From positions 2,126 to 66,125 of the forward strand of contig JAHEDI010000004.1 of assembly GCA_024641305.1 (NCBI GenBank): a stretch of DNA of 64,000 bases. Reading direction: 5' to 3'. The notes beneath the pieces were generated by a model. That model was not told where the DNA came from. It made no database searches and was given only the letters and a program-made list of their open reading frames with translations. A program made the translations under genes and the position numbers. This DNA comes from a bacterium (lineage in GTDB: Bacteria > Actinomycetota > Acidimicrobiia > Spongiisociales > JAENVV01). Positions 3,416 to 58,654 of the stretch are shown piece after piece (the first letter of the stretch is position 1; each line of letters begins with the position of its first letter).

Positions 3416-3848
3416 CGGTCAGGACGTTCCTCGATATGAGCCATGGCCACCGGTGAGAGACACCCCTCACTTGAACGACGAACAGTTCGTGAGTCTTGAG
3501 ACGTTTCGTCGCGATGGGACGGCAGTCAAGACGCCGATTTGGTTCGCCCAGGAGGGCGACAAGTTATTCATGTGGACGGCCGCCAATTCTGGCAAAGTCA
3601 AGCGAATCGGCAACAACACCGGGGTGCGAGTCGCCGTGTGCACGCGATTTGGACGGGTCACCGGTGATTGGTTCGAGGCCCAAGCTTCGGTTGACGCCTC
3701 CCCTGCAGCCGTGCAACGGGTCGAAAACCTGTTAAAGGTGAAACTCGGCTTCTGGTTCACGCTGTTCCAGCGTATCGATGGGATCCGGGACAACCGGAAT
3801 GGCTCAAGCCGGGTTTGCCTCACGGTCTCGTTTGCGAAAAGTTCCTAG
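3372..3848 (+). CDS. PPOX-class (pyridoxamine-phosphate-oxidase-like) FMN/F420-binding protein
   Basis: The HLNDEQFVSLETFRRDGTAVKTPIWFAQEGDKLFMWTA fold signature is present. The true start is probably the GTG near 3453. Confidence 0.65.
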   Translation: MPKTIPRPTGSTHVDGQDVPRYEPWPPVRDTPHLNDEQFVSLETFRRDGTAVKTPIWFAQEGDKLFMWTAANSGKVKRIGNNTGVRVAVCTRFGRVTGDWFEAQASVDASPAAVQRVENLLKVKLGFWFTLFQRIDGIRDNRNGSSRVCLTVSFAKSS

Positions 3849-3887
3849 CTACCTGACCCGCAGCATCCAACTATGTCTTCGCCACCT

Positions 3888-5090
3888 CTAGCGACGGCGA
3901 CGCTTGCGCAGGGGGTTGACGACGACCTGCTCGTAGGGCGGCGGTTGAAACGCCTCAAGATCTTTCAGCCGTGGATCGTTTGAGAACATCTTGACGACGG
4001 TCGACAGAACCTCGGCTTCCTTCTGAAGCGTCCGGACCTCTGTCATCTGATTCCATTCGACAAACGTGACAACCAATCCCGAACCTCCGGCGCGTGCGGT
4101 TCGCCCCGAGCGGTGGAGGTAGGTCTTATAGTCCTTGGGCAAGTCGTAGTGAATCACAATGTCCACACCTTCGATATGCAGGCCCCGAGCAGCCACGTTC
4201 GTCGCCACGAGCACCTTGGTCTTGCCCTCGGCAAACGACGCCAGAACCCGCTCTCGCTTCGATTGAGGCAGATCGCCGTGAAGGGCTTTGGCCGATACGC
4301 CCTCGGCGCTTATTTGTTCAGCAGCTTTGTCACAACCACGCTTGGTATGGACGAAAACAAGAATCCGGGTGGCGTTTTCAGCAATGGCGGCAACTGCTTT
4401 GGGTTTGTCGAGATAGTGCACCTCGATGAACCGGTGCTCCATGGTGTCCACGGTCACCGTGTCAGATTCAACCTCGTGATAGACAGGTTCTTTGAGGTGT
4501 CGTTTGACCAAACGGTCCACGGCTCCGTCCAGGGTCGCCGAAAAAAGCAGCGTTTGGTGATCGCCCTCCATCTGGCGGACGATGACGTCTACCTGAGGCA
4601 AGAAGCCCATATCGGCCATCTGATCGGCCTCGTCAAGACACACCATCTGAACGTCGGCCACCGATACATCGCCCCGCTCCAGGAAATCGATCAACCGACC
4701 AGGGGTCGCAACCACAATGTCGGCCGTGGCGAGTTCGGTCCGCTGGTCGCTCATGGAGGCACCGCCGTACACGGCCACCACATGAAGACCGTAAGAGTGG
4801 CCCAGGAACCTCAGCTCTTCGGCCACCTGCAAACACAATTCGCGGGTCGGGACGAGTACCACGCCGCGGGGGCGTCGCTTGATGGCGGACGTGAGTTTCA
4901 TGACCATTGGTAGCCCGAAGGCGAGGGTCTTGCCCGAACCCGTCTTGGCTTTGCCGCAGACATCGACACCCGAGAGCGCGTCCGGGATGGTCATGGTCTG
5001 AACAGGAAAAGGAGTGGTAATACCCCGGCTGGCCAATTCGGCAACGAGCGTGTCGGACACACCGAGGTCCGCGAAAGAAGTTTGAGTCAT
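3888..5090 (-). CDS. DEAD-box ATP-dependent RNA helicase
   Basis: All the helicase motifs are present: the Q motif, AKTGSGKT, PTRELCLQV, DEAD, SAT and HRSGRTARAG. Confidence 0.9.
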   Translation of the reverse strand: MTQTSFADLGVSDTLVAELASRGITTPFPVQTMTIPDALSGVDVCGKAKTGSGKTLAFGLPMVMKLTSAIKRRPRGVVLVPTRELCLQVAEELRFLGHSYGLHVVAVYGGASMSDQRTELATADIVVATPGRLIDFLERGDVSVADVQMVCLDEADQMADMGFLPQVDVIVRQMEGDHQTLLFSATLDGAVDRLVKRHLKEPVYHEVESDTVTVDTMEHRFIEVHYLDKPKAVAAIAENATRILVFVHTKRGCDKAAEQISAEGVSAKALHGDLPQSKRERVLASFAEGKTKVLVATNVAARGLHIEGVDIVIHYDLPKDYKTYLHRSGRTARAGGSGLVVTFVEWNQMTEVRTLQKEAEVLSTVVKMFSNDPRLKDLEAFQPPPYEQVVVNPLRKRRRR

Positions 5091-8799: not shown

Positions 8800-9963
8800 T
8801 CAGTCCTCTTCGACGTCCTCGCGACGGATCCCCAGGACGAACAAGATGGCATCGAGGTACGGGACACTTACCGACGTGTCGGCTGCCTCCTGAACGATCG
8901 GTTTTGCGTTGAACGCCACTCCGAGGCCGGCCGTGGCGAGCATGTCAAGATCGTTGGCCCCATCGCCCACCGCCACAGTCTGTTCAAGCGGGACCCCTTC
9001 TCGATTGGCGAGTTCAACGAGTAACTCAGCCTTGCGCTTTCGATCGACGATTGGCCCGATTAGCTGGCCGGTAAGCACGCCATCGAGGATCTCCAATTCG
9101 TTGGCGAAGACGTGGTCGATTCCGAGTTCGGCGCCCACCTTGTCAACGAAGAACTGAAAGCCCCCAGAAACCGCAGCCGTGGTGTACCCGAGGCGGCGAA
9201 GCGTCCTGACGAATGTTCGCGCCCCAGGCGTCAGGCGAACTTTGGCTTGCGCCCGGTCGAGGGCAGCCTGATCCAATCCAGCGAGCAGGGCTACCCGAAG
9301 CCGGAGAGATTCGGTGAAATCGAGTTCACCCGCCATGGCACTAGCCGTGATGGCGACCACCTCGTGCTGAACGCCGGCCTCGTCGGCCAGCAGATCGATA
9401 ATCTCATCCTGGATGAGGGTGGAGTCGACATCGAGAAAGACAAGGCGTTTGGCACGACGACCCAGCCCTTCACGCTGAATGGCCACGTCGACCCCGTGGT
9501 GGGCCGAGGACTGCAATAGACGGGACCGCATGTCTCCGGCGTCGCCGCCCGAGACTATGAGTTCATAGCTGAAGACCGGCGTTCGTGATAGTTGGGCGAT
9601 CCGGTCGATATTGCCCCCACCGCCGGCAATGGCGTCGGCCACGCCGGCCAAGGCCGCCGCGGACAATTCACGCCCGAGAACGGTTACTGCATGACGTATG
9701 GGACTCGGGGGCGTGCTGACCTCCGCTTCGACGACCTCGAACTCAATCGCCATCGACTTCTGCCAGCCGTAGTAGAGCAGGTCTTTGACCGTTGAGGCAC
9801 TCTCGGGGATGTCAACGAGCAAACTCAGGTTGAGCCGATCGTGGACCACGGTCTGTTCCATATCCAGAACGTCGGCACCGGCCGACGCCAGGATCTCCAA
9901 CAACCCGAACGTGATTCCGGGTCGATCGGTACCGGTTACATGAACAAGGATCGACTTCGACAT
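8800..9963 (-). CDS. serB: phosphoserine phosphatase SerB with N-terminal ACT domains
   Basis: It has the HAD motifs FLDVDSTLIQ and GDGANDLDML, and the N-terminal ACT segment VHVTGTDRPGI. Confidence 0.85.
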   Translation of the reverse strand: MSKSILVHVTGTDRPGITFGLLEILASAGADVLDMEQTVVHDRLNLSLLVDIPESASTVKDLLYYGWQKSMAIEFEVVEAEVSTPPSPIRHAVTVLGRELSAAALAGVADAIAGGGGNIDRIAQLSRTPVFSYELIVSGGDAGDMRSRLLQSSAHHGVDVAIQREGLGRRAKRLVFLDVDSTLIQDEIIDLLADEAGVQHEVVAITASAMAGELDFTESLRLRVALLAGLDQAALDRAQAKVRLTPGARTFVRTLRRLGYTTAAVSGGFQFFVDKVGAELGIDHVFANELEILDGVLTGQLIGPIVDRKRKAELLVELANREGVPLEQTVAVGDGANDLDMLATAGLGVAFNAKPIVQEAADTSVSVPYLDAILFVLGIRREDVEED

Positions 9964-10044
9964 TCCGCCAGGCTAGTGCGCAAGTCTGTAGGCTCAGACC
10001 CGCTCTGGCACCCGGGCGAGCGGGCCGATCCGAATTGCGAGTTC

Positions 10045-11976
10045 CTACGCGACGCCGAATCGAGGAGTACGGCACCGGAGGAAGGCCGACTCACCCTTTC
10101 CGACCAGGCAAGGTACCCGGCCGTCTGGCTGCTGGCGGAGCGGATCGATCAGGTTGGTTGTCACAAAGGAGAGTGGAACAAACGTGGCCGAGGCGGCCGA
10201 GGCGGGGGTGCCAGGATCGATACACAACGAGAGTGAACCATCGTTGTTTTTCGCGAGATAGCTACCCGCCGGGATGGCCGAACCATTGTACGTGTCGACG
10301 ATAGTGCCAGGGCCCACGATCCCGGTTACCGGCGTAGGGACCGCCCGACAGTCTTCGGCCGGAACCGCCCCCAACACCACGTTGCCGAATCCGAACGTGT
10401 TGTCCTTGCCCTTGGGGCCAAGGTCCAACGAATAGTCCTCGAGCCCTTTCACGACCCGATCGGGCGTCCAGTTCGGGGCTGCGTGCATGATAAGGGCGGC
10501 GAGACCGGAGATATGCGGAGCCGAGGCCGACGTTCCGATGAACCCATCACAAGCTCCCGCCGTTCCACCGAAGGCACGGGTAATCACTCCGTCAGCCGAC
10601 ACAAAGTCCGGTTTGATCCGACCATCGATCGTCGGGCCCAGCGAAGAGAAGTACTCGATCTGGTTGTTGGCGAAACAGGCGGCCCCCACTGCCACCGTGT
10701 GAGGCGAGAAAGCCGGGTCGGCGATCGATCCGGTGGCTACCTGGTATTCAATGGGACCCCTGTGTCCAAACACCAAGAGATCCAACTCACCTGGGTTGGT
10801 TACCGAATACGCTCGGACCTCAATAAACACTGTCTTATCCGACCCTGTCGTATTCGTCCAGATAACTTGCTCGCCGGGAAAATCACCGGGGGGAGACGCC
10901 TGGTCGCGGAAGCCGTCGCTTCCATAGTTCAGAGGCTCAGTTCCCGTGAGATCCCACAGGTATAGGTCGAGGTCCTCCGTAGTTTTCGGCCAGTTATCCC
11001 ACTTCAAGAAGACGCTCAAGGTACCGCCGCTAGGAACGACCGCTGATAGGTCAAAGTCCGGCGAACCAGACGAGTTGGTGCCGAAGCGTTGCAGCGTGAT
11101 GTTGCTGTTGGGTGGCGTGTACGGTTTCCACGCGCCTTTCCAATGGTCCTGTGTGTAGTTCCCGGCAGCAGCCACCCAAAGAATGCCGGCCTCGTCGGCG
11201 CGCCTCGCCGCGTTTGAGGCGCTGGGGGCCTGGGCCGTCCCGTCCCCCCGATCAGACAAGAACCAGGCACCGGAATGGTTGATGATGTCGATCCCTTGCG
11301 CGATCGCGTAATCCACAAACGCTTCCAGGTCGAACTCATCATCGACACACACCAGATAGATCTGAGCGGCGGGAGCAATGTCATAGATGATCTCTGCCAC
11401 GGCGGTCCCGTGGGCTCCCCCGCTTTCCAGCGGGTTGGAACAATAATTCTTCGTGATGGCATTCCCGGGAAGGTCCCCCGACGTGACTGCTTCGAGACGC
11501 CCTGCGAAACCAAAGTCGACGACGGCAACCTTCGCCCCGATCCCGGTCAGGCCAAGCGCGTGCCAGGTGTTGGCGCCCGTGGTACCGACGCCCTGGGACT
11601 GTACAGCTAGCGGAGCGGGAGGGATCATCTGGCGGACTGACGCAATCCCGGGCGCCCGCTCCAGGCCCCGAAGGGCCGCGAGCGGCATTTCCACCTTGAA
11701 TGACTCGCCTTCACTGGCCAGCACCCGTCCACCGGCGTTGCCTACCGACTGGCGAGCAGCGGTTTCCCGACCGGTGTAGTCGACCCGGACGGTCACATTG
11801 CCCGCATTGGACCTGGCAGCCTCGGCCAGCGATCCACCGACCCCGTCGAAAGAGTCACGGTTGACCTCGATGGGAACGGATCGCTCGGGTTCGCCCTGAG
11901 CAACGGCCGGACTGCTCAGCAACGACCCGACGACCACGATGGCGAGCGACGTTGACCATATCCTGCGTCCGGGCAT
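10045..11976 (-). CDS. secreted S8 family (subtilisin-like) serine peptidase
   Basis: It has a signal peptide and the Asp (VAVVDFG), His (HGTAVAE) and Ser (GTSASAPHISGLAAL) catalytic blocks. Confidence 0.85.
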   Translation of the reverse strand: MPGRRIWSTSLAIVVVGSLLSSPAVAQGEPERSVPIEVNRDSFDGVGGSLAEAARSNAGNVTVRVDYTGRETAARQSVGNAGGRVLASEGESFKVEMPLAALRGLERAPGIASVRQMIPPAPLAVQSQGVGTTGANTWHALGLTGIGAKVAVVDFGFAGRLEAVTSGDLPGNAITKNYCSNPLESGGAHGTAVAEIIYDIAPAAQIYLVCVDDEFDLEAFVDYAIAQGIDIINHSGAWFLSDRGDGTAQAPSASNAARRADEAGILWVAAAGNYTQDHWKGAWKPYTPPNSNITLQRFGTNSSGSPDFDLSAVVPSGGTLSVFLKWDNWPKTTEDLDLYLWDLTGTEPLNYGSDGFRDQASPPGDFPGEQVIWTNTTGSDKTVFIEVRAYSVTNPGELDLLVFGHRGPIEYQVATGSIADPAFSPHTVAVGAACFANNQIEYFSSLGPTIDGRIKPDFVSADGVITRAFGGTAGACDGFIGTSASAPHISGLAALIMHAAPNWTPDRVVKGLEDYSLDLGPKGKDNTFGFGNVVLGAVPAEDCRAVPTPVTGIVGPGTIVDTYNGSAIPAGSYLAKNNDGSLSLCIDPGTPASAASATFVPLSFVTTNLIDPLRQQPDGRVPCLVGKGESAFLRCRTPRFGVA

Positions 11977-12084
11977 CGCCTACTCCCTGGGTGTGCGAAC
12001 CAACATAGTAAATCGCCGTGGCCGCTAACCGGAGTCGCTTCCGAGCATCACCGACCAGGACCGCAGACCGGTCCGATTGTTCCG

Positions 12085-12433
12085 TGGAGGTGGGGGGAGT
12101 CGAACCCCCGTCCGTTGCACCATCTGCGCCGCTTCTCCGAGCGCAGCCAACAGCAAGCATTCGGACCAGTGGGGCTCTGATGGCAAGTTTCCCTCTGACC
12201 TATCCGGAATTGTCTTAGCCCCTCAGTCCCGGAATCCCTCGGGGAGCGTCCTACATTGCGACGTCTGGATCCGGCGAGGTAGGTACCCTCCGGTCAGACG
12301 AGCAGCCTATTTAGGCTGCCAGGGCGAAGTTATCTTCGGCACCTATTGGTGTTCCGGTTCTTTAACGAGGACTCCGGAGACCTCGGCTCGCTTCAAGCGC
12401 TTCAACATGCAACGTCGAAACCGTTTCACCCCC
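12085..12433 (-). ncRNA. ssrA: transfer-messenger RNA (tmRNA)
   Basis: On the minus strand the sequence starts GGGGGTGAAACGGTTTCGACG. It contains the tag reading frame GCC GAA GAT AAC TTC GCC CTG GCA GCC TAA (AEDNFALAA, near 12311-12340). It ends with the tRNA-like T-arm GGGGGTTCGACTCCCCC and then CACCTCCA. smpB lies nearby. Confidence 0.9.
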
Positions 12434-17536: not shown

Positions 17537-20161
17537 CTATTCGGCCGCGCCATGGCATCGCTTGTACTTCTTGCCCGAACCGCAAAAGCAAGGTTCGTTG
17601 CGACCCATCCGATCCTCGGCCGTGGCCTGCTTGGGCTTTGACGGCCCAGCGTTGGTCGATATCGCTTGAACCCGCTGCACCGGCTGAGCAGGCTGATCGA
17701 CAACCTCGACGTGAAAAAGGTACCGAACCGCGTCGCGCTTCACCGAGTCAACCAGCCCCGAAAACAGGTTAAACGCTTCGTTCTGATACTCGACGAGCGG
17801 ATCGCGCTGGCCCATCGCACGCAGCCCGATGCCAGCTCGCAGGTAATCCATCTCGCTGAGATGTTCGCGCCACTTGTTGTCAATGATCGACAAGGTCACC
17901 CGCTTCTCGATCGCCCGGAGCACCGGTTCGCCTAACTCCGATTCGCGGGCGTCATAGACGCCATGGGCGTCCTCCATCACCAGGTCAACGATTTTCTCGA
18001 CAGACTTGATGCCTTCAAAAGCCTCAGCTCCCAGGCGCATCGGATACAACACGGTGAGCTCCCGTTGAAGTTCCTCGAGATCCCACTGACCGGCCGGGAC
18101 CATTTCAAGTCCGACCCGAACCGTGTCTTCAACCACGGTGTCGATCCATTCTCTGGCCAGGTCGGCCGAATCTTCCCCAAGCAGGAGGTTCTGGCGCCAG
18201 GAGTAAATAACCTCCCGCTGCCGGTTCATAACTTCGTCGTATTTGAGCACATTCTTACGGGCTTCGAAGTTTTGTGCCTCGACCTGACCCTGCGCCCGCT
18301 CGACCGACTTCGAAACCATCTTCGCCTCGATCGGAACGTCTTCTGGCAATTTGAGACGGTCCATGATGCTCGTCACACGGTCCCCGGCAAAGCGCCGCAT
18401 GAGATCGTCTCCAAGCGACAAGTAGAACCGCGACTCCCCCGGATCTCCCTGGCGACCCGACCGGCCTCGCAACTGGTTGTCGATTCGACGAGAGTCGTGG
18501 CGCTCAGTACCTATGACATAGAGTCCACCGGCCGCCAGGACTTCGGCCTTGGCGGCCGAAGTCTCCGCTTTGTACTTCTTGAGTGCTTTCTCGTACGCGT
18601 CGTCAAAGCCGTCGTCGGTTGGGTTCAACCCTGTTTTGCGGACGGCGGACAAGGCGAGTCCTTCCGGGTTGCCTCCGAGCATGATGTCAACACCACGACC
18701 TGCCATGTTCGTAGCTACGGTGACCGCACCCGGTCGCCCCGCCTGAGCGATGATCTCCGCTTCACGGTGATGCTGCTTGGCGTTGAGGACCTCATGATCG
18801 ATCCCACGACGACTGAGAAAGTTCGAAAGTCGTTCAGACTTCTCAATACTCACGGTGCCGACCAGAACCGGTTGATTTTTGCTGTTCCGCTCGACAATGT
18901 CATCGATCAGCGCATGGAACTTGGCGTCCTCGGTCTTGTAGACCAAATCCTCTTTATCAATACGGGCCACCGGCACATTGGTGGGGATCACCACGACATC
19001 GACGTCATAGATCTCTTTGAGTTCGGCTTCTTCCGTTTTGGCCGTACCCGTCATACCAGACAGCTTGTCGTACATGCGGAAGTAGTTCTGGAGGGTGATC
19101 GTGGCGAGCGTCTGGTTCTCCTGTTTGATCTCTACGCCCTCTTGCGCCTCGATCGCCTGATGCAGGCCCTCCGAATAGCGCCGACCATCGAGGACCCGGC
19201 CGGTGAATTCGTCAACGATCTTCACCTCACCATCGACGACCAGATACTCGACGTCGCGGTGATAAAGCGTCTTTGCCTTGAGGCCGACGTCGAGGTGGTG
19301 CACAAAGTCGACTGCAGCATGGTCGTACATATTTTCGATTCCGAGCATTGACTCGACCCTCGATACGCCGGCCTCGGTGGTTATGACCTGGCGCTTGCCC
19401 TCGTCGACCTCGTAGTGCTCGTCTTCGCGTAGTTGACTGACAATCTTGGCAAAGTCCCGATACCACTTGGCACTATCGCCGACCACGCCGGAGATGATGA
19501 GCGGGGTTCGGGCTTCATCGACGAGGATCGAGTCAACCTCGTCGACAATCGCATAGAAGTACCCTCGGTGAACCATGCCCTCGGACCGCATCGCCATGTT
19601 GTCGCGCAGATAATCGAACCCGAATTCGTTGTTCGTCCCGTGTGTGATGTTGGCGCTGTAGGCGACCCGACGTTCTGCCGGGGTCATGTCCGACTGGATA
19701 AGTCCGACGTCAAGACCCATGAACCGGTGGACCTGACCCATCCACTCTGCGTCGCGGGCGGCCAGGTATTCGTTCACGGTGATTACGTGAACATTGCCAC
19801 CGGTGAGCGCGTTCAGATACGCAGGCATGGTGCTTACAAGCGTCTTACCTTCACCAGTGCGCATCTCGATGATCATGCCTTGGTGGAGCGCGGCTGCCCC
19901 GACCACTTGCACGTCGAACGGCCGCATTCCGAGAACTCGCTTGGCTGCCTCGCGCACCGACGCGAAAGCCTCCGCGGCAAGGTCATCAAGCGACGCTCCC
20001 CTATCGAGACGTTCCTTGAACTCGTTGGTCTTCGCTTGAAGGTCCACGTCCGACAGGAGTTCCATGGACGGTTCGAGTTGGCCCACTTCTTGAGCGAAGA
20101 CTTCCAGCTCTTTGAGGGCGCGTCCTTCTCCGGCGCGCAGAAGCTTTGAAAGAATGGTCAT
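17537..20161 (-). CDS. secA: preprotein translocase ATPase SecA
   Basis: The 874-aa protein has the DEAD-like motor motifs and the C-terminal zinc finger [14 protein letters not shown]. Confidence 0.95.
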
Positions 20162-20206
20162 GCAACCATATTAGGAGGGAACCGGTGTTCAACTGTCGTT
20201 CTTATG

Positions 20207-21541
20207 TCAACCGTCGAGATCAAGCTGTTCGATGAGGGCAGCTGGATCAACTCCGGCTCGATCGGACGTGAGTTGATCGACGATAACGCGGTCCTTCAGG
20301 GTGGTCGGTTCTGGTTCACTGAGGAGCAGTCCGTCAGGCGCCCGAACGAGGACCACATCGGCCAGCTCACTCGGATCCTGGTGGTTGCCGGTGACCATCA
20401 CGATGCCGCCCGTGTCGAGTTCGAGCAGCGATCCCACCGGATACACGCCAACCATCTTGATGAAGGTCTGCACAAGGTCAGGGTCGTACAAAGACCCGGC
20501 CCCCTGAAGCAGTACCCGCAGGGCACGGTTGGGCGTTTCGGCTCGCCGGTAACTGCGCCGGGTGGTCAGTGCGTCATATGTGTCGGCGGTGGACACCAGA
20601 CGACTGAAGAAGTGGGCGGGGCGCGAGTAGGTCAGATTTGGATATCCCTGCCGGTCATACCGGGCGTGATGTTCGAACGCGACGACCGCAGCAATCTCCT
20701 GACCAGGGGCAGCCGCAGCCAAAATGGCAGCAGCACCCTCCTGTGGGTGGAGCTTGATCTCGGCCCACTGCTCGGTATCGAGGCGTCCGGGCCATTGCAG
20801 GGTTTGGAGGGGAACCCGAACTTTGCCAATGTCGTGAAGTAATGCGCCGACGGCCAGAAGCTTGATCTCCTCTTCGGCTAGACCAACCATCCTCGCCAGA
20901 GCGATGGCGAGGATACAAACGTTTACGGAGTGGTAGAACGTGTATTCGTCGTGGCTCTTCATGGTCGAGAGCAACACGGAGGCGGCCGGCTGGGAGAGCG
21001 TTTGCTCGACAAGTTGTTCAACGACCCACGTGGCTCCCGTCAAGTCGAACGACTCATCCGAATCGAGTGCCAGGGACACGCCGCGCAGAACATCAAGCGA
21101 CCGGGCATATGAGCGACGAAGGCCCGTAAATCCGGTGTCGGTTTCGAGCTCCGATCGGGAGTACGGTCGCTCGTTCAGACGGATGGTGCCTTCAGCGGGC
21201 ACATCACCAGATGTCGCCGCCAGGAAGGCGGCCAGGTCATGGACATCGCCCCGAGAAACTCTTGAGGTCAACGTGACAGAATCCACCCCGCGAGCTTGCA
21301 TGTCGCGCAGCAAACGGTTGAACTCCAGCGAGGCGTGCGGCAAGATCGTACGTTCCAGGTACAAAGAATCGCCGATGATCGTGATGGATGTCTCGGCGGA
21401 GTCGTCCAATAGGACGTTGGCCGCGTCGGTCGCCTTGTTCACTACCTCCACCAGGGCGGGATGTTCTTCGGGGTAGAGCGCCATCTGGCGGCTTGCCGAC
21501 CGGAGATGGTTAAAGAAGTCGCGCGTTCGCTGATCGCTCAT
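20207..21541 (-). CDS. HD-GYP domain phosphodiesterase with an about 200-aa N-terminal domain of unknown function
   Basis: It has LLHDIGKV and HHARYDRQGYP. Its start overlaps the stop of the upstream HEAT-repeat gene at 21541. Confidence 0.8.
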   Translation of the reverse strand: MSDQRTRDFFNHLRSASRQMALYPEEHPALVEVVNKATDAANVLLDDSAETSITIIGDSLYLERTILPHASLEFNRLLRDMQARGVDSVTLTSRVSRGDVHDLAAFLAATSGDVPAEGTIRLNERPYSRSELETDTGFTGLRRSYARSLDVLRGVSLALDSDESFDLTGATWVVEQLVEQTLSQPAASVLLSTMKSHDEYTFYHSVNVCILAIALARMVGLAEEEIKLLAVGALLHDIGKVRVPLQTLQWPGRLDTEQWAEIKLHPQEGAAAILAAAAPGQEIAAVVAFEHHARYDRQGYPNLTYSRPAHFFSRLVSTADTYDALTTRRSYRRAETPNRALRVLLQGAGSLYDPDLVQTFIKMVGVYPVGSLLELDTGGIVMVTGNHQDPSELADVVLVRAPDGLLLSEPEPTTLKDRVIVDQLTSDRAGVDPAALIEQLDLDG

Positions 21542-23457
21542 CAGGTGTCCCTTCGTCGGAGTGCGGTCCGGGCCGCTTCGCGCAAACCGCGAGCCTGGGC
21601 ACCCACTACCAACCGCTTTTTGGCTATGACTGTGAGGATTTCCGTGCCGGGTCCGCTATGGCCCGCCCCCAAGGCCAGAATCACCCGAACCTTGTCACTA
21701 TGGCGAGTACGACGATCATTCAGCACCGCCACGAGTACCCCTTCTGATTCAGACGTCCCGGCTGTACCAAGCATTCCAATGCTCGCATGGCGGACCTTCT
21801 CATCCTCATCGCCTATCGCCTTGGCAAGTCGCTGGACCGATCCAGAGCCACTCGTTCCAAGTGCCCGGAGCGCTTCAAGCCGAACCCGGGAATCAGGATG
21901 CTCCCCTGCGGCCACCACGGCCTCGTGGGCGGTCGTGGTTGCGGTCTCACGCAAAACGGTTAGCAAATTCCGCACGACGTACCAGCGTTCGTCACTTAGC
22001 CGGTTTACGATCGGCGCCGGATCTTCAGCCGCTATCTGGCTGAGAAGACCCACGAGCAGCCGACGCCGATTCCGCCCCTCTTCCTCGGCCAATAGATCGA
22101 TCATCGCGTTCACGGCCTTGGGCCCGAGGGCCTGCAACAACCGCAGGGCTGATTCCTGGGCGGAACCCTTCTCGGGCTCCCCTTCCCCCTTTTCGGCTGC
22201 CACAGCCACGATGTGGTTCAGGATTTCAGGACTGGCGATTTGGGAAAGGGAATAGTCGACATCGCTCTCCCGGTGGGGCGCATAGGTCGGTTTGGCGGTG
22301 ACCGACCTGAGCCAGAGTTCTGCCCGACGAAAATCGGATGCCCTGACCGAAGCCGAGACTTTTCCCACCCAGACCCGCATGAGTCTTCGGAAACGATCGT
22401 CGCGATCCTCCACGGCCAATAACCCGCGGAACACCTCAAGGGAATCGTAGAAGTAGCGACGCGGGTCGGGGAATTTGTCCTGGACGATCGCCAGGAACTG
22501 CGCACTGGCTTCAGCGGCTTTGGCCAACTCGCCGAGGCGCTCCTGAACCTTGGCTGCGGCTACCTCACGAACCGATTGCAGGGCTTCAGGGTTCTTGAGG
22601 ATCCCGAGCACTTCCTCCGGCCGATTATCGGCCTGATCTGTGGCAACCCGGGCGTAATCGAGGAGGAGCGCCAGCCCTTGTGAATCGAGTCGCGGGGCCA
22701 GCTTGGCAAGTTCGTGGCCGGCAAATTGATCAAGAAAAGCCCGATCGAACTGTTCGTCCGAGTCCAGAAAACGGCGAAACACCCCCAGTTGGGAGGGTTC
22801 GTCCAGGTAGAAGAACGCCTCGACAAAGGCTTGCACGACACCTTCTCGACCGAAGATGTCTGTGTCGGTGAGGTGCTCGAGCGTCTCGTGATACCGATCG
22901 TAGAAGACCACAATGACCGCTTCAGATTCACCTCCGGCTTCGGCGATGAGAGCTTCGGCGAAGGCCGCCGCATCGACGCCTTCGTCGAGGACCTCCTGGA
23001 CCCTGCCATCACGGTCGGGGGCGTCCTCGGACCCAACCACCCGGAGCATCGAGCGTTGGGCGACCGAGAAACTAACCACCCCATCGCGCCGGAGCTCCGC
23101 TTCGATACCGCCCGAAGCCCCCGAGCTTGATTCGTCTTTGGCGAGACTCCTGAACAATCGGTCGACGTCTCGCGGGCTCGGGGCGGCCACGACCGACAGC
23201 CCTTCCACCCGATGCAGGTAGCACCGCTTGGCAAATCGGTCCGCTCCCTCACGATCGGTTTCTACGGGCTCGCCGGCGTAGGAGAATCCGGAGCTATCGA
23301 GGTCAAGGTGGATTCCATCGCTCGATGCCTCCTGAAGCAGCTCGACCGCCCGACGGAACGCTGGTTGCGATTCAGGTTCAGGGTACAGGCTGAAAACGGT
23401 CCACGCCGTCCCCAATGCCTCAACAATCGTCCCTGGTCGTGGTTCAGCCGCCATCAT
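21541..23457 (-). CDS. large hypothetical protein with C-terminal HEAT/PBS-lyase-type repeats
   Basis: The last about 200 aa contain repeated alpha-helical units (ERWYVVRNLLTVL, DSRVRLEALRALG, DEKVRHASIGMLG, SDKVRVILALG). The N-terminal 400 aa have no family I recognise. It overlaps its neighbours on both sides by 1-4 nt. Confidence 0.6.
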   Translation of the reverse strand: MMAAEPRPGTIVEALGTAWTVFSLYPEPESQPAFRRAVELLQEASSDGIHLDLDSSGFSYAGEPVETDREGADRFAKRCYLHRVEGLSVVAAPSPRDVDRLFRSLAKDESSSGASGGIEAELRRDGVVSFSVAQRSMLRVVGSEDAPDRDGRVQEVLDEGVDAAAFAEALIAEAGGESEAVIVVFYDRYHETLEHLTDTDIFGREGVVQAFVEAFFYLDEPSQLGVFRRFLDSDEQFDRAFLDQFAGHELAKLAPRLDSQGLALLLDYARVATDQADNRPEEVLGILKNPEALQSVREVAAAKVQERLGELAKAAEASAQFLAIVQDKFPDPRRYFYDSLEVFRGLLAVEDRDDRFRRLMRVWVGKVSASVRASDFRRAELWLRSVTAKPTYAPHRESDVDYSLSQIASPEILNHIVAVAAEKGEGEPEKGSAQESALRLLQALGPKAVNAMIDLLAEEEGRNRRRLLVGLLSQIAAEDPAPIVNRLSDERWYVVRNLLTVLRETATTTAHEAVVAAGEHPDSRVRLEALRALGTSGSGSVQRLAKAIGDEDEKVRHASIGMLGTAGTSESEGVLVAVLNDRRTRHSDKVRVILALGAGHSGPGTEILTVIAKKRLVVGAQARGLREAARTALRRRDT

Positions 23458-24104
23458 TCCATCGATATGAGTTCTTCACGCAACGCATACATCACAGCCT
23501 CACCGCGGGAATGCAACCCGAGCTTGTCCAGGATGTTCCGCACATGGTTCTTGACCGTATTTTCCGAGATGTACAAACGTTCGCCGATCTCGCGACTCGT
23601 GAGGCCCCTGGCAATGAACTGGAGCACCTCCACCTCGCGACCGGTCAACGCCGGCTTTCGAGCGCTAACCACATCCTTGTGGCGCAGCAATTGAGCGACG
23701 GTCCCAAACAGCTTTCCGAGCATCGCCGGCGAGACAACCGCACCGCCGTGGACCACCGCCTCGATCCCGGCGACCAGTTCTGGAAGCGGCGTGGTCTTGA
23801 CGATGTAGCCCATGGCACCCGAGCGGATCGCCGCCAGAAGATCTTCGCCGGACTCCGACGAAGTCAGCAAAACCACCTTCGTTTTCGGAGCAGCCAGAAT
23901 GATCTTGTCCACGACGTCAAGACCGGAGATTCCCGGCATCAGAACGTCGAGAACGACAATGTCAGGCTGTAGCTGTGACGCCTTGGCAACCGCCGCCATG
24001 GCATCTTGGGCTTCCCCAACCACGTCGAGGCCCGCCCCACCGAGAGCGGACGTCAGCCCGGCTTGAAAAAGCACGGCATCGTCGACGACCAGAACACTTG
24101 TCAT
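23454..24104 (-). CDS. two-component response regulator, NarL/LuxR family (REC plus HTH)
   Basis: It has the receiver Asp pocket (VLVVDD, VLDVLMPG) and a C-terminal LuxR-type HTH (LTGREVEVLQFIARGLTSREIGERLYISENTVKNHV). Confidence 0.85.
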   Translation of the reverse strand: MTSVLVVDDAVLFQAGLTSALGGAGLDVVGEAQDAMAAVAKASQLQPDIVVLDVLMPGISGLDVVDKIILAAPKTKVVLLTSSESGEDLLAAIRSGAMGYIVKTTPLPELVAGIEAVVHGGAVVSPAMLGKLFGTVAQLLRHKDVVSARKPALTGREVEVLQFIARGLTSREIGERLYISENTVKNHVRNILDKLGLHSRGEAVMYALREELISME

Positions 24105-24637
24105 CGAGGTTCGATCAAGCCATATGCTCCGTCGCGACGACGATAGAGGACACTGTCCAGATCCGTGTCGGCGTTGCGAAAGTAAAAGAATTCGTGTCCG
24201 AGCATGTCGAGTTGAAGGATCGCTTCCTCAGGTGTCATCGGCTTGAGTTGAAATTGCTTGACCCGAACGATCTCAGGCTCGATTTGATCGCCAGTGGCCG
24301 GAGTGTCGGATTTGTCCTGACGAGGCTGACGGGATCGCTGGACCATACGATCGCGCAGTCGACGAAGCTGCTTCTCAAATCGGTCAACCGCCAGATCGAG
24401 GGCCGCCATCGGGGTGGACGATGCCGACTCGACCCGTACCAGATGACCGCCTGCCCGACACGTGATCTCAACGCGGTATTTCTCAGGAGCCAGCCGGGGG
24501 TTCTGTTCTTCCGACAATTCGACATCGGCGTCCCCGGTGCCCTCGAAAAAGCGAGCAGCATGGGCGATCTTGGATTCGGCGGCTTCGCGAAACTCTTGAT
24601 CGATGTCAACGTGGCGGCTGTGGAGCTGAACTATCAA
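24101..24637 (-). CDS. hpf: ribosome hibernation promoting factor (long form)
   Basis: It has an N-terminal S30AE/RaiA domain and a C-terminal dimerisation domain. It overlaps the start of the response-regulator gene by 4 nt. Confidence 0.85.
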   Translation of the reverse strand: MIVQLHSRHVDIDQEFREAAESKIAHAARFFEGTGDADVELSEEQNPRLAPEKYRVEITCRAGGHLVRVESASSTPMAALDLAVDRFEKQLRRLRDRMVQRSRQPRQDKSDTPATGDQIEPEIVRVKQFQLKPMTPEEAILQLDMLGHEFFYFRNADTDLDSVLYRRRDGAYGLIEPR

Positions 24638-24649: not shown

Positions 24650-25246
24650 TCATCGTCGTGATCGCAGACTAGTCACTTCGGATGCCGATGTGGCGACCAC
24701 TGATTGCACAATTATCGGGAAATTTGCCTGCAACGTTCCGACCGCATGAGCCAACGTCGAACCGGTCGTCAGAACATCATCGACGACAACCAACCTGACA
24801 AGACCACGGCCCAATTCCTTCGCTTGCACGGTGAAAATCGGAGCTTGTCGATCGGCGGCACGGGCCCCGGCATTGGCAGGTGACCACCAGGCGGGATGCA
24901 AGGCAGCGACCACAGGCAATCCCAATTCGGCGGCTACCACCCTGGCCAATTCAAGGCTCTGATCGATGCCGTACCGCCACCGGCGCAGGTGTACCCGTGG
25001 TACGTACGTAACGGCGTCAACGGGGACCCTGACCTGACCGGCCATTGCACCGCCAAGAACCCGACCGGCGGACCGGATCCCTTCATACTTGAGTCGGTGG
25101 ACGAGCACTCTGGCCGGCCCACTGTGCTCGAATGCGGCCCGCACGACCCGGCCGACGACCAGCCGATCGGCGGCCGGCCGCAACCGGCGGCTGCACCCTT
25201 CACACACATAGCGAGCTGACCACGCACGACATGCCAAACAGACCAT
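24650..25246 (-). CDS. ComF family phosphoribosyltransferase-domain protein
   Basis: It has an N-terminal zinc ribbon (CLACRAW...CEGC) and a PRTase motif (VVVDDVLTTGST). It sits next to hpf and secA as in mycobacteria. Confidence 0.75.
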   Translation of the reverse strand: MVCLACRAWSARYVCEGCSRRLRPAADRLVVGRVVRAAFEHSGPARVLVHRLKYEGIRSAGRVLGGAMAGQVRVPVDAVTYVPRVHLRRWRYGIDQSLELARVVAAELGLPVVAALHPAWWSPANAGARAADRQAPIFTVQAKELGRGLVRLVVVDDVLTTGSTLAHAVGTLQANFPIIVQSVVATSASEVTSLRSRR

Positions 25247-27633: not shown

Positions 27634-28028
27634 CCGGCAAACTTCGGAAAAAGAACCAGTACGGTAGCGGCGACCTTGGCGCCGTTGAAGGCCGCCAGGT
27701 TGTCTCCGAACCACAGTTCAGCCAGTGCCACAAACCCGGACGTTACGGCCAGAGCGAATCCATTGACCAGGAAGAACGCCGCCGTCTCGCGCATCGACTT
27801 CTTCCCGTCGGTGATCAAGAACGTGAAACGACGGTTCATCAAATATGAGGCGCCGGTGGCGGTGGTAAACGCCAGCACAACCGAGACTTGGGAAGAAAAG
27901 CCCAAACCAGCTTTGAAGACATTGGCCAGCACAAAATCAAGAACCGTATTCAAGCCGCCAATGACGGCCAGCCTCATGAACTGATTGGCGCTGGTCCGGT
28001 TGAAGAAGCTCAGCAAATAGGCTTTCAT
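27582..28028 (-). CDS. GtrA family small membrane protein (flippase of polyprenyl-P-sugar systems)
   Basis: It is 148 aa with four predicted TM helices and resembles the GtrA family (LNTVLDFVL..., RRFTF). It overlaps the upstream large membrane protein gene by 4 nt. Confidence 0.75.
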   Translation of the reverse strand: MKAYLLSFFNRTSANQFMRLAVIGGLNTVLDFVLANVFKAGLGFSSQVSVVLAFTTATGASYLMNRRFTFLITDGKKSMRETAAFFLVNGFALAVTSGFVALAELWFGDNLAAFNGAKVAATVLVLFPKFAGYRDLVFRRSLSNDARS

Positions 28029-30460
28029 GCCTCTTTCCTTCTCGCGACGACAAAGCCGGCTACCAGCAGGGCAATTCCGGATGCCGTCATCGCAATACCA
28101 ACCTTCTCAAAGATGGTTCTGGTGAAATCCATCTCGACGTGACCCTCGGTGGGGACGACGATCATCAACGACGGACTGGCCCTCCACGGCCCGTCTGCTC
28201 CGGTAGCCTGCCAGTTCGGAAAGTACGACACCTTCACAAGGTGAGGTACCCCGATGGCGGTGGTATCGAATTCGAAGTGACCGTTATCACTCACAATATT
28301 CGACACGACCCCGGAATCCTTGAGTGGTGTCGATACGCTCTCAAGCAGAGAAAGGTCGTCGATTCGTGGCCAATCTGCCGGGCCGTCCGCCACCAGCCAA
28401 TTATCGAGGAGTTCGAGATCGTCGTACCATTCGAGCGCCACATCGTTGAAGTTCGACGCTTCCTCACTTCCCAGCCTAAGTCCACCTTCGGTTTCGAAGA
28501 CGACCGGCTGATTGACGGCAACGTCGACCAGCTGAGTCGGGGGCAACGCGAAGACCCGGTGTGGGTCAATGCGGGCGATCTCACGGAGTTCGGGATGGGC
28601 GAGCGCCTCCTCGGCGGCCTCAGGGGTAAACGTCACGTAATAATTGACTCCGTAGACGGCCAGGTGGGCGATACCGCGATCGAAGTCAAAGTTGTGATAG
28701 GTCAAACCAGGAATCGGATTCGACGGCCGGAAACTCATCTCACCGGCGTTGATGAAGTGAAACGGCGTGGTGATGGATGATTCAAAGAAGAGTCCCTCCA
28801 TCGAGGCTTGCCGAGTCCAGTAGGGAAACAGCATGAGCGCCATCGGCGTCCCGTACTCGCGGTCCATGTCGTTGTTGGCTTCCCACTGAATTCGCCCAGC
28901 CGGTAGAACGTCGACCGCTTCCATGAGCCGTTGGTACTGGTCAAATCCCGGTTTCTGTTCATAGCCGCTGAAGTTCCATGCGGCCCAGCCGGAAACGAAA
29001 CTTAATCCGGCCAGCGACTGGACGAGAATGAACCCGCTGGCCAGGAGCACCATCGACGGGCCAGTTTTGACTTTCGCCCCGGCGATCTCCACTCCCCCCC
29101 AAACGAGAATCGCCAACGCCGCAACGCCGCCTGCCCACCATTGGACCTCAACGGACCCTTTCCAAAATCCCGCCGCCAACGCAACCAGGGCCCCGATCAG
29201 GAGCGGCGCCTTGAGCCAACCAACTGAAATCCTGGTCGGTAGACGCCTGGCAACCGCCTTCGATGCAACCCCGACGGTGACACCAGTGAGCATCGATATG
29301 CCGAAGAACCAAAATGGCAGCAACCGACCATTCCAGAGCTTCCAGGTTCCTGAAAACCAACCCATCTGACTGGCGATCGTGGGGACCCAGAAGTACAAGA
29401 CCGGAAGGAACGTCAGGACGACCATCGGGGCCCAGTTCTTGGTTCGCCTGATCAGCCATCCCGCCCCGAACATCGCCGGAGGCAGCAAGAGCCAAATCTC
29501 GGACGGGAGGATCTCCCCCCAGGTCTTCAGCGGCACCCAGCTCATGTCAGAGGTTTGGTTGAGCCTGGCAATGAGCGGGACAGCCCAGAAGCCGGCCACT
29601 GCAAAGCCCCATAGCCAGACCACCCCGGTCTTGAGGAACCCCCGCTTCCAGAACAGGATTGGGATGCTCGCCAGCACGAACATCCCGGTCGTAATCACAT
29701 GCGATAGAGCCGTGCAAGCCAGCAACAGGACCGCCAGCGGAACATACCGTGGCGAAACCCGGACGGCCTTGATGAGGGTCGCCAGATAGAACAAACCCAA
29801 CGCAAAGGACCATGAATATGAAAATTCGCCAGCCATCGTCGACGGAGCATTCCCTCCGAAGATCGTGAACGACTCAATAAAGACGAAGGTTCCACCCGCT
29901 ACACCGGCCGCCGTGCCAACCCACCGGTCCAACCCCAAGGCCCGCCCGAACACATATGAGGCGGCCGGAGTAGCCAGCAAACCCGCCACCGTCACAATCT
30001 TGAAAGCCACGCCGTACGGAAGCAGCAGATCGAGAAAGACGATGACCAGTGAGGGCAAAGGGAAGTAGAAGTAGAAGGCGGGGAACCCGGCGAACCAGGC
30101 GTCACTCCAGCCAAGGATCTGGAAATTGGGCAGCAGATCATCCCGCAGGATGGCCGGTCCAAGGACATGGGCGCCCATATCCCCCCCGGTCGGGGTATTG
30201 ATTGTCAGAATGAGCCACGGTTGCACAGCGAAGAAAATCGCCGCCGTTACGGCGGCGATTGCAAGTCGCGGCACCCATGGGGACACCGCCTGGTCGGCGG
30301 TGCCCGAGGCCCTCCCGCTAGGCGCGGGCCTTCCTGGCGAGTTCCAGTACGTCCGCAAGCGCGATCTCTCGTCCTTGATGGTCCCACCATCGTTCGTCAC
30401 ACTTATGGCATGAGAAAAAATCGATCTCAGTACCGTCCGGTAACTTCTGGTGAATTTCAA
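28025..30460 (-). CDS. large polytopic membrane protein, putative GT-C fold glycosyltransferase (YfhO/PMT-like) with C-terminal extracytoplasmic domain
   Basis: About 13-15 hydrophobic helices occupy the first about 520 aa, followed by an about 290-aa soluble domain. Its operon context with GtrA and a GT2 polyprenyl-P-sugar synthase supports the call. The start may be the GTG near 30286 rather than 30460. Confidence 0.55.
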   Translation of the reverse strand: MKFTRSYRTVLRSIFSHAISVTNDGGTIKDERSRLRTYWNSPGRPAPSGRASGTADQAVSPWVPRLAIAAVTAAIFFAVQPWLILTINTPTGGDMGAHVLGPAILRDDLLPNFQILGWSDAWFAGFPAFYFYFPLPSLVIVFLDLLLPYGVAFKIVTVAGLLATPAASYVFGRALGLDRWVGTAAGVAGGTFVFIESFTIFGGNAPSTMAGEFSYSWSFALGLFYLATLIKAVRVSPRYVPLAVLLLACTALSHVITTGMFVLASIPILFWKRGFLKTGVVWLWGFAVAGFWAVPLIARLNQTSDMSWVPLKTWGEILPSEIWLLLPPAMFGAGWLIRRTKNWAPMVVLTFLPVLYFWVPTIASQMGWFSGTWKLWNGRLLPFWFFGISMLTGVTVGVASKAVARRLPTRISVGWLKAPLLIGALVALAAGFWKGSVEVQWWAGGVAALAILVWGGVEIAGAKVKTGPSMVLLASGFILVQSLAGLSFVSGWAAWNFSGYEQKPGFDQYQRLMEAVDVLPAGRIQWEANNDMDREYGTPMALMLFPYWTRQASMEGLFFESSITTPFHFINAGEMSFRPSNPIPGLTYHNFDFDRGIAHLAVYGVNYYVTFTPEAAEEALAHPELREIARIDPHRVFALPPTQLVDVAVNQPVVFETEGGLRLGSEEASNFNDVALEWYDDLELLDNWLVADGPADWPRIDDLSLLESVSTPLKDSGVVSNIVSDNGHFEFDTTAIGVPHLVKVSYFPNWQATGADGPWRASPSLMIVVPTEGHVEMDFTRTIFEKVGIAMTASGIALLVAGFVVARRKEA

Positions 30461-57982: not shown

Positions 57983-58654
57983 TTGTCAGCGGATGACAAC
58001 ATCGAAATAGAATTCCCGTCCCTCTCAAGGACGGTTCAGTCGAGGACTCCGCGCCCCGGGTCTGCCGCTGCCGATGCCTCTGACGGCCTGCCACCCGATG
58101 ATTCCACAGCCGATGACTTCGCCTGGTTGACGGCCATATTCGCCGACGACGACGAAACCACCGTCGAGGAACTGACCACCGTCGAGGACCGAGACGACGA
58201 CACCGACGACACCGCCTCGATCGGCGCCGGAGACCCATTGGTCGACGATGTCGAGGCGTTAGCCATCTCCCATAGGGGTCTTTTGGAGGACCCACTGGCT
58301 TCTGATGACACGCTCTTTCCATCCGACCGGATCGGGGACTCACCCGAGTACCTCGATCAGGTGGAACAGCCCGAGATCACCGCCTCCATGCTCCAAACAG
58401 ACGCCACCTTGGAAGTCGAGGACGACCCCGAAATCGACCGCTACCTCGAAGCCGACGAACCATCGTCGACCGACGACTCTTCTGGCCAGATATCCCACGG
58501 CACATCCACCACTATCACAACGCCGGGCGATCTCGTTCCCACCGGTTTGGCGGAACTCAAGAAAGCCAACGGATTCAGGGAGGAGATCCTCTCGACCTTT
58601 TCGCAGATGTATCGCAAATCAGCCCGTCCCGACGGAGACCGGACAGCTGGCTAA
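57983..58654 (+). CDS. highly acidic, low-complexity (Asp/Glu/Thr-rich) hypothetical protein
   Basis: It has strong GC3 codon bias despite the low complexity. There are runs of D/E/T (DDDETTVEELTTVEDRDDDTDDT). Confidence 0.55.
   Translation: MSADDNIEIEFPSLSRTVQSRTPRPGSAAADASDGLPPDDSTADDFAWLTAIFADDDETTVEELTTVEDRDDDTDDTASIGAGDPLVDDVEALAISHRGLLEDPLASDDTLFPSDRIGDSPEYLDQVEQPEITASMLQTDATLEVEDDPEIDRYLEADEPSSTDDSSGQISHGTSTTITTPGDLVPTGLAELKKANGFREEILSTFSQMYRKSARPDGDRTAG

Follow-up and report, generated by a model that had tools for sequence, protein, structure and literature searches.

A putatively co-translated unit of hpf, a response regulator and a HEAT-repeat/HD-GYP protein pair between comF and secA in Acidimicrobiia

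Gene order at the hpf locus

Whether a functional tie or merely a shared location joins a response regulator, a HEAT-repeat protein and a predicted HD-GYP phosphodiesterase to the ribosome-hibernation gene hpf is the question raised by the locus described here. The canonical actinobacterial and firmicute locus has the order comFC-(raiA motif RNA)-raiA/hpf-secA-prfB (PMC10861870). In the window (the whole stretch of 64,000 nucleotides that was analysed), comF, a long hpf, secA and prfB are present in the same order and orientation, with ftsE/ftsX and tmRNA further on, whereas three extra genes, apparently coupled to hpf, are located between hpf and secA; moreover, mtrAB-lpqB is absent upstream of comF, unlike in the canonical locus. 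The original prediction had described the unit as an insertion between hpf and secA, and comparison with the canonical order supports this description. The features of the locus are as follows, with prfB, like secA, lying downstream of the unit.

24650-25246: comF-like gene, upstream of the unit
24101-24637, minus strand: hpf, 178 aa, TTG start, long form; first gene of the putatively coupled unit
23454-24104, minus strand: NarL/FixJ-type response regulator (RR), receiver domain (REC) plus GerE HTH, 216 aa
21541-23457, minus strand: HEAT-repeat partner protein, 638 aa
23050-23457, minus strand: shared N-terminal domain, HEAT-partner copy, residues ~1-136, motif L24-Y25-P26...P28
21544-22161, minus strand: HEAT/PBS-lyase-type repeats, C-terminal in the partner, residues ~433-638, with a 'D-x-R-W-Y-V-V-R-N' motif
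20207-21541, minus strand: predicted HD-GYP phosphodiesterase, 444 aa; the N-domain is followed by a helical linker, the catalytic HD-GYP domain and ~80 aa of C-terminal extension
21170-21541, minus strand: shared N-terminal domain, HD-GYP copy, residues ~1-124, motif L22-Y23-P24-x-x-H27-P28
20168-20173, minus strand: TAATAT, a hexamer resembling a -10 element, 6 nt before the secA start codon (ATG)
17537-20161: secA, downstream of the unit

An ORF check bore out the four minus-strand reading frames and their overlaps at the predicted positions. The hpf stop and the RR start share 4 nt (24101-24104, ATGA), the RR stop and the HEAT start share another 4 nt (23454-23457), and the HEAT and HD-GYP genes overlap by 1 nt (21541). 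These overlaps, along with the retention of the junctions in related genomes, support the earlier proposal of translational coupling, and judging from its junctions the four-gene unit is translationally coupled. The spacer between comF and hpf is only 12 nt in the window, and the start context of hpf is similar to that of the related locus L001. The presence of a raiA motif RNA between comF and hpf was rejected, as the Rfam covariance model gave no match at the gathering score in the window and six related loci.

Conservation and boundaries of the unit

Recurrence in relatives had been suggested as a check on the unit, and the quartet proved to be conserved across Acidimicrobiia. The colinear block comF-hpf-RR-HEAT-HDGYP-secA-prfB occurs in ~38 loci, all from metagenome-assembled genomes (MAGs) and with inferred start codons; the quartet is always placed between comF and secA, and identity of the HEAT protein across these loci goes down to 29-30%. 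The hpf-RR junction is -4 nt in 33 of the 38 related loci, the RR-HEAT junction falls between -4 and +2 nt in 36, and the HEAT and HD-GYP genes overlap in 37. By this comparison, the arrangement is far beyond chance. Furthermore, the HD-GYP copies linked to quartets form a nearly monophyletic group, in keeping with a single ancient insertion.

The HD-GYP gene overlaps secA in none of the 38 loci (median gap +53 nt, minimum 39 nt), and a TANNNT hexamer precedes the secA ATG by 12-20 nt in 36 of them, mostly at -15. The TAATAT of the window would represent a separate secA promoter yielding a leaderless or near-leaderless mRNA, and the conservation of this -10 element places the end of the unit at the HD-GYP gene. 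A generic scan for sigma-70 promoters and terminators returned no excess of sites over shuffled sequence. Upstream of hpf, a k-mer search for an operator of the RR gave only the -10-like elements TAGAGT, TAGTCT and TATAGT near the 3' end of comF; their conservation may merely reflect relatedness, and its significance is not established.

The comparison identifies what appears to be the first conserved genetic coupling found between a ribosome-hibernation factor and second-messenger turnover. A literature search on HD-GYP proteins with HEAT, hpf, Acidimicrobiia or Nitrospira found nothing relevant and no paper describing the quartet, in agreement with the initial statement that no described system of this composition was known. 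The coupling is found in Acidimicrobiia, which are abundant in the environment and barely studied experimentally.

Constituent proteins and the shared N-terminal domain

The first gene encodes a long-form HPF (HPF-long, 100S-forming), with an N-terminal S30AE/YfiA domain (Pfam Ribosomal_S30AE, residues 3-98, 67.7 bits) and a C-terminal dimerisation domain (Ribosom_S30AE_C, residues 120-174, 93.8 bits), both above cut-off, as well as NCBIfam TIGR00741 (61.4 bits, cut-off 40.9). Other bacteria produce HPF at stationary-phase entry or under stress. The second gene product is a NarL/FixJ-type regulator matching Pfam Response_reg (83 bits) and GerE (71 bits); it carries a REC with the phospho-acceptor Asp, the DD/T/K residues and a GerE HTH, and residues D8/D9, D53, T81 and K103 together with the entire HTH are at least 95% conserved (40 orthologues). 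As had been noted from the sequence, it has no cognate kinase nearby: no HisKA, HATPase_c or other histidine kinase was detected in the conserved block or in the window ORFs scanned (most of them, including every ORF within ~10 kb of the unit). The RR is an 'orphan' by location only.

By its domain the HD-GYP protein belongs to the HD-GYP phosphodiesterase family (Pfam HD_5 / COG2206), with matches over residues 195-356 to HD_5 (61.3 bits, cut-off 27.2) and to HD (51.6 bits, cut-off 22). Its catalytic domain is homologous to those of PmGH (4mcw; phmmer E 4.7e-28), PA4781 (4r8z) and V-cGAP3 (5z7c), with E-values of 4.7e-28 to 9e-21 for the three, and keeps the H, HD, H, HH, D and GYP signatures: H204, H236-D237, H265, H291-H292, D320 and the motif G299-Y300-P301 align with PmGH, and metal ligands and GYP are nearly invariant among 58 homologues. 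The third-metal Glu of PmGH aligns with Tyr200, the adjoining Glu199 being conserved instead. HD-GYP enzymes vary in substrate (c-di-GMP, pGpG, 3'3'-cGAMP), and the sequence does not settle which of these is used; the enzyme would hydrolyse a cyclic dinucleotide, with c-di-GMP as the most probable substrate. The unit associates receiver and HD-GYP domains, as do RpfG-type proteins (REC fused to HD-GYP), but here the REC is part of a DNA-binding regulator of the NarL type that has its own gene, without an adjacent RpfC-like kinase and with the HEAT gene in between; the HD-GYP polypeptide itself has no fused REC, its residues 1-190 giving no match to REC or any other Pfam model and its N-terminus being formed by a novel domain.

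The HEAT protein has Pfam HEAT_2 as its sole match (residues ~480-545), its first ~430 aa being unmatched, and its tandem helical-hairpin repeats agree with HEAT profiles and fold. A more specific fold for the full protein was discarded, since the fold search gave generic HEAT-repeat matches only. The HEAT/PBS-lyase-type proteins CpcE/CpcF, E. coli YibA and NblB have no counterpart of its first ~430 aa (N-domain and helical middle), and the HEAT partner has no link to bilin or phycobilisome genes. An anti-phage defence system was ruled out, as PADLOC returned only weak, generic HD (Cas3) and HTH matches, and none for the HEAT protein or hpf.

The HEAT and HD-GYP proteins share a paralogous N-terminal alpha/beta domain of ~120 aa with an 'LYPxxHP' motif. 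Their N-termini align in hhalign with a probability of 96-97% (E 1e-9 to 1e-10), and as direct BLASTP between them is not significant, the homology is seen only by profile-profile comparison. The order of secondary-structure elements is the same in both copies (independent AF2 models), and L, Y, P and P are invariant in the joint alignment. Neither Pfam nor NCBIfam contains a model of the domain, and PDB contains no structural neighbour, making it new to all three resources. The initial description of an uncharacterised 400-aa region in one protein and an extra N-domain in the other is supported in that both regions match no known family, but they are not independent, the first ~120 aa being mutually homologous. 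An exhaustive profile search placed the domain in 2,631 protein clusters (50% identity), and the sampled clusters had HEAT or HD architecture only, bar one with HATPase_c. In known HD-GYP enzymes, which act alone, the N-terminal domain is REC, GAF-like or of another type, whereas the present family has this uncharacterised domain and is always encoded, and apparently coupled, with a HEAT protein bearing its paralogue. In one quartet clade (L054, L055 and L057), the partner is 344-352 aa long and without the N-domain, which the HD-GYP protein retains; pairing of N-domains therefore cannot be the sole interface.

The pair also occurs independently of hpf. Stop/start overlaps between the HEAT and HD-GYP genes are found in nearly all of ~70 loci, Nitrospirota included, and pairs lacking hpf and RR occur in Acidimicrobiia, as a second copy, as well as in Nitrospirota and other phyla; some Acidimicrobiia MAGs hold both a stand-alone paralogous pair and the quartet (L021 with L026, L023 with L056). 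Elsewhere its neighbours are tatA/tatC, thiG/E/C, proB, UPF0182 or divergent nuo genes, contexts vary, and no third conserved partner was detected outside Acidimicrobiia. At least 565 matching stretches are present among GTDB species genomes, some of which match HEAT repeats only. A natural fusion (P0324) joins the N-half of the partner to an HD protein that has HH...GAP instead of GYP; a HEAT partner upstream of this fusion was rejected, the upstream gene being valS. From this distribution, the HEAT and HD-GYP genes are best described as an older, self-standing, translationally coupled module that is the conserved core of the quartet. As the pair is found without hpf and RR, the link with ribosome hibernation is a lineage-specific co-expression context and not intrinsic to the module. 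Of the original idea of a self-contained second-messenger module wired to hibernation, the co-expression with hpf is retained, while the intrinsic link is not; nor is the module self-contained, as the unit has no cyclase and no known receptor, and a single GGDEF protein (GAF-GGDEF-EAL), encoded ~35 kb away, was found in the window. To our knowledge, no class of c-di-GMP phosphodiesterases is less well understood than the HD-GYP proteins, and little is known of their partners; the present finding points to a large subfamily of wide phylogenetic range whose members may function only as a unit of two proteins.

Proposed role and competing explanations

The best overall explanation, with a probability of roughly 0.55, is that the unit encodes a two-subunit cyclic-dinucleotide phosphodiesterase co-expressed with HPF and a phosphorylatable regulator; herein, we infer complex formation, substrate, timing of expression, RR targets and any link to the ribosome. 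An Acidimicrobiia ancestor would have gained three genes between hpf and secA, namely a NarL-type RR and a pre-existing HEAT/HD-GYP module. The four genes would form one transcript, translated by ribosome re-initiation at the overlapping stop and start codons, so that production of HPF would always be accompanied by that of the other three proteins, at a nearly fixed stoichiometry. A single complex of HEAT protein and HD-GYP enzyme is most likely, in which the HD-GYP subunit, with its complete set of metal-binding and GYP motifs, would hydrolyse a cyclic dinucleotide (most probably c-di-GMP) and the HEAT subunit would serve as regulatory or scaffolding partner. The fusion P0324 and the GAF-GGDEF-EAL protein of the window are in line with this explanation. 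Its copy of the N-domain could pair with that of the enzyme or bind the same ligand, and its long alpha-solenoid could dock a third party. The RR is probably signalled by an unlinked kinase and probably governs how strongly a conserved target is transcribed, for which this operon is one candidate.

Neutral co-location is a tentative alternative, itself rather unlikely, whereby the RR and the pair came to lie in a housekeeping locus that is strongly expressed and seldom rearranged, were inherited there, and would represent an ordinary c-di-GMP phosphodiesterase and an ordinary regulator, functionally unconnected with HPF or translation. The position of the pair beside varied housekeeping genes in other lineages (tat, thi, proB, UPF0182, valS, nuo), the stand-alone paralogues in the same MAGs as quartet copies and the ancient, stable order comF-hpf-secA-prfB (PMC10861870) are all consistent with it. 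However, the exact 4-nt overlap of hpf and RR has been kept in 33/38 loci despite divergence of the HEAT protein to 30% identity, in no quartet locus is a single member missing or relocated with the others still in place, and secA, at a distance of only ~50 nt, has retained a separate promoter element, so that the unit is delimited and not merged with its neighbourhood; these observations argue against neutral co-location.

Two further readings are both improbable. In one, the HEAT partner targets the HD-GYP protein to the ribosome or the protein-export machinery, where local turnover of a cyclic dinucleotide, or of another nucleotide, would report or control the status of translation and secretion; the unit would then be a genuine signalling device linked to hibernation. 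The other, just as doubtful, holds that the 'LYPxxHP' domain defines an undescribed, multi-phylum two-subunit phosphodiesterase holoenzyme whose HEAT solenoid docks the enzyme on the translation or export machinery; in Acidimicrobiia it would be made stoichiometrically with HPF, thereby tying cyclic-dinucleotide turnover to hibernation, with the NarL-type RR as the transcriptional arm.

It is very unlikely that the HD-GYP protein is no cyclic-dinucleotide phosphodiesterase and acts instead as a catalytically altered sensor, or as an enzyme for some other nucleotide, such as a linear dinucleotide or one related to (p)ppGpp, the HEAT protein then serving as effector: Tyr200 at the third-metal Glu position, the varied substrates of characterised HD-GYPs (V-cGAP3, 5z7c), the match to the inactive HD-GYP-like Bd1817 (3tm8, E 1.5e-9) and the GAP of the fusion would allow it, but the HD domains of (p)ppGpp hydrolases form a separate family that had no Pfam match here, the top PDB matches are active c-di-GMP and cGAMP phosphodiesterases, and the protein has the full set of seven canonical H/D ligands, the HDIGK lysine and GYP, which hardly vary across the family.

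A translationally coupled unit between comF and secA

The quartet (hpf and the genes for a NarL-type response regulator (RR), a HEAT-repeat protein and an HD-GYP protein) is best read, with a probability of about 0.55, as encoding a predicted two-subunit cyclic-dinucleotide phosphodiesterase co-translated with a long HPF and the RR. The HD-GYP protein would be the catalytic subunit and the HEAT protein a regulatory or scaffold subunit, so that the cell would gain second-messenger degradation capacity and a transcriptional switch at the same time as the hibernation factor.

Quartet, flanks and promoter-like elements in the window
17537-20161: secA, downstream flank, with prfB, ftsE, ftsX, M23 peptidase and tmRNA
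20168-20173, minus strand: TAATAT hexamer upstream of secA, 6 nt before the ATG
20207-21541, minus strand: HD-GYP protein gene, ORF of 444 aa; residues 195-356 are HD_5/HD (Pfam)
21541-23457, minus strand: HEAT protein gene, ORF of 638 aa; sole Pfam match HEAT_2, around residues 480-545
23454-24104, minus strand: RR gene, ORF of 216 aa; REC and GerE (Pfam)
24101-24637, minus strand: hpf, ORF of 178 aa, TTG start; long form, S30AE and S30AE_C (Pfam)
24650-25246: comF-like gene, upstream flank, with PGM/PMM
24666-24671, minus strand: -10-like element in the comF 3' end

The ORF check reproduced exactly the four minus-strand ORFs and positions of the original prediction, and the overlaps it had described amount to 4 nt (ATGA) for hpf/RR, 4 nt for RR/HEAT and 1 nt for HEAT/HD-GYP. 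Its domain assignments are confirmed by Pfam, and the N-terminal ~430 aa of the HEAT protein and ~190 aa of the HD-GYP protein have no match in Pfam or NCBIfam. Downstream of prfB, ftsE, ftsX and the M23 peptidase gene is the tmRNA (window 12082-12433, minus strand; Rfam RF00023, 159 bits), and two related loci (L021 and L053) carry a tmRNA in the same neighbourhood.

Nearly all full-length HEAT-protein homologues (30-97% identity) are from MAGs labelled Acidimicrobiia or Actinomycetota, and a profile scan against one genome per GTDB species found its relatives encoded in at least 565 stretches. When the window proteins were searched by tblastn against 77 related loci (all MAGs, with inferred gene starts), the colinear order (PGM...)comF-hpf-RR-HEAT-HDGYP-secA-prfB was recovered in ~38, with HEAT identity down to 29-30%. 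This conservation, with junction lengths kept, marks the quartet on comparative grounds as a class-wide feature; its absence from related genomes would have told against the original proposal.

Junctions in the 38 colinear loci
comF to hpf: median ~95 nt
hpf to RR: -4 nt in 33/38, maximum +5
RR to HEAT: -4 to +2 nt in 36/38
HEAT to HD-GYP: overlap in 37/38
HD-GYP to secA: overlap in 0/38, median +53 nt

The usual order in Actinomycetota and Bacillota is comFC-raiA RNA-raiA(hpf), with secA, prfB and mtrA/mtrB/lpqB as common neighbours (PMC10861870). Since this order lacks the RR, HEAT and HD-GYP genes, the three are an insertion relative to comFC-hpf-secA, as had been proposed in describing them as wedged between hpf and secA; no raiA RNA was detectable at the quartet locus. 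The foremost alternative to the favoured reading, considered unlikely, is that these genes are neutral hitch-hikers in a housekeeping locus that is stable.

In 36 of 38 loci, a TANNNT -10-like hexamer precedes the secA ATG by 12-20 nt, mostly at -15 (chance occurrence in so short an interval is well under 10% of loci by our own base-composition estimate). Such placement is the classic actinobacterial promoter layout for leaderless or near-leaderless mRNA, and it suggests a dedicated secA promoter of this kind across Acidimicrobiia. As secA would then have its own start, the coupled unit probably ends at the HD-GYP gene, although some read-through into secA may occur. Upstream, a GGAGG-type Shine-Dalgarno sequence precedes hpf in most loci, and recurrent -10-like elements (GTGACTAGTCT, GGCAGGTAGAGT, GGCGTATAGTG) occur at or near the comF 3' end, 30-130 nt upstream of hpf in related loci. 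These are possibly the hpf operon promoter, and their conservation could reflect phylogenetic relatedness.

The HEAT and HD-GYP genes as a pair

The HEAT and HD-GYP genes, with their stop/start overlap, are also present as a pair without hpf, RR or secA. Acidimicrobiia harbour a second copy, divergent to nuoG/F/D and a geranylgeranyl-reductase-like gene and sometimes sharing a MAG with the quartet copy, and stand-alone pairs occur in other Actinomycetota as well as in a MAG labelled Eubacteriales (125-nt gap, no overlap). In Nitrospirota, the HEAT partner (544-552 aa) and the enzyme are both full-length homologues (hhalign 99.9%, E 1e-33 for the partner; E 1e-66 for the enzyme); here htrA-tatA/B-tatC and a conserved 92-aa ORF precede the pair. 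This ORF (L060 6204-6482 and the corresponding place in nine other Nitrospirota loci) matches no Pfam family; it separates tatC from the partner gene, overlaps the tatC end with its start, and might be a third component in Nitrospirota. Other neighbours include thiG/thiE/thiC, proB or UPF0182; a UPF0182 family membrane protein gene lies directly 3' of the HD-GYP gene in two distant loci whose labels are Eubacteriales and Actinomycetes (L065 12208-14973 and L071 12239-14455). No third partner conserved with the pair across its contexts was found. True physical targeting to the ribosome or translocon is an improbable reading, with the location next to hpf, secA and tat as its sole hint, and would be the most interesting one if it held.

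In a simple NJ tree, the quartet-linked HD-GYP copies group together and are nearly monophyletic; their sister group is the main clade of stand-alone copies from Acidimicrobiia. The topology is consistent with one ancient event in which the hpf-secA locus captured both the pair and the RR. The pair is taken to be the older, autonomous module.

A common N-terminal domain and a natural fusion

Although BLASTP between the N-termini of the two proteins was not significant, profile-profile comparison matched HD-GYP family residues 1-120 to HEAT family residues 3-118 (96-97% probability, E 1e-9 to 1e-10). In the joint alignment the motif L-Y-P...P is invariant (the enzyme copy reads LYPxxHP), and independent AF2 models place the secondary-structure elements in the same order.

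AF2 models of the N-terminal domain copies
HEAT protein (pLDDT 86.8): H8-24, H32-44, E49-54, E57-60, H70-81, E84-89, H95-106 ... E130-134
HD-GYP residues 1-190 (pLDDT above 90 over 1-110): H2-22, H28-45, E50-56, E59-62, H68-83, E88-92, H97-107, E120-122

An exhaustive hmmsearch of 1.84 billion representatives with the joint profile gave 2,631 matches at E <= 1e-3, of which 295 reach E <= 1e-10; the best are either about 620-720 aa or about 440-480 aa long. Among 56 top matches, Pfam detected HEAT-type repeats in 33, HD/HD_5 in 15/12, HATPase_c in 1 and nothing else, which argues that the domain is essentially private to the two protein types. Three ~300-aa proteins carry two tandem copies. In one quartet clade (L054 ~9842-10876, L055 1305-2357, L057 9971-11029), the partner is short (344-352 aa), lacking the domain and the initial half of the middle region, while its gene still overlaps the HD-GYP gene and the enzyme keeps its domain; pairing of the two domains therefore cannot be the sole interface.

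One natural fusion, P0324 (719 aa; gene at L078 1351-3510, flanks at 1-1347 and 3610-4764), joins the partner N-half to an HD protein: residues 1-262 align with partner 1-264 (95.6%) and residues 364-688 with HD-GYP protein 16-347 (99.1%), with HH...GAP replacing GYP. Its neighbours are valS on one side and, on the other, a T2SSE ATPase with an MshEN domain, a c-di-GMP-binding domain. Fusion, a common private domain and translational coupling constitute the standard comparative-genomic signature of one complex; since the fusion and private domain are here joined by universal translational coupling, we infer that the HEAT and HD-GYP proteins act as one complex.

Catalytic, regulatory and genomic context

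The catalytic domain matches PmGH (4mcw, E 4.7e-28), PA4781 (4r8z) and V-cGAP3 (5z7c), and H204, H236-D237, H265, H291-H292, D320 and G299-Y-P are present and nearly invariant in the family. By all available sequence tests, the enzyme is a bona fide HD-GYP; the sole deviation is that the third-metal Glu of PmGH aligns with Tyr200, the adjacent Glu199 being conserved. A non-canonical substrate or sensor role is highly improbable, and the substrate is predicted to be one of the cyclic dinucleotides. The only other candidate found in the window for making or degrading c-di-GMP is a GAF-GGDEF-EAL protein (58736-61303, plus strand; 855 aa), whose predicted domains show that the organism uses c-di-GMP. 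For three ORFs around its gene (57983-58654, 61375-62643 and 62640-63566, plus strand), Pfam gives nothing at E <= 1e-4.

Across 40 RR orthologues, D8/D9, D53, T81, K103 and nearly the whole recognition helix are >=95% conserved; with phospho-acceptor residues and helix thus retained, the RR is predicted to be an ordinary NarL-type regulator that can be phosphorylated and whose DNA target is conserved. The original prediction gave it no cognate kinase, and no histidine kinase was found within the conserved block or in those window ORFs that were scanned.

The quartet falls outside the known system types. A known defence system is rejected, PADLOC having given just weak, generic matches, and so is an RpfG-type protein, since REC is fused to HD-GYP there whereas here it resides on a separate RR. 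The original prediction knew of no described system of this composition, and none was found in the searchable literature. The HD-GYP enzyme class, HPF and the response regulator are already familiar, while the obligate-looking partner, the undescribed common domain and the conserved coupling to hpf are new.

Elsewhere in the window, an 811-aa ORF without a Pfam match (28025-30460, minus strand) lies where AT skew is unusually high, reaching 0.32 at 29000-29999; as it adjoins GtrA-like, DUF5719 and GT2 genes, it may encode a cell-envelope protein.
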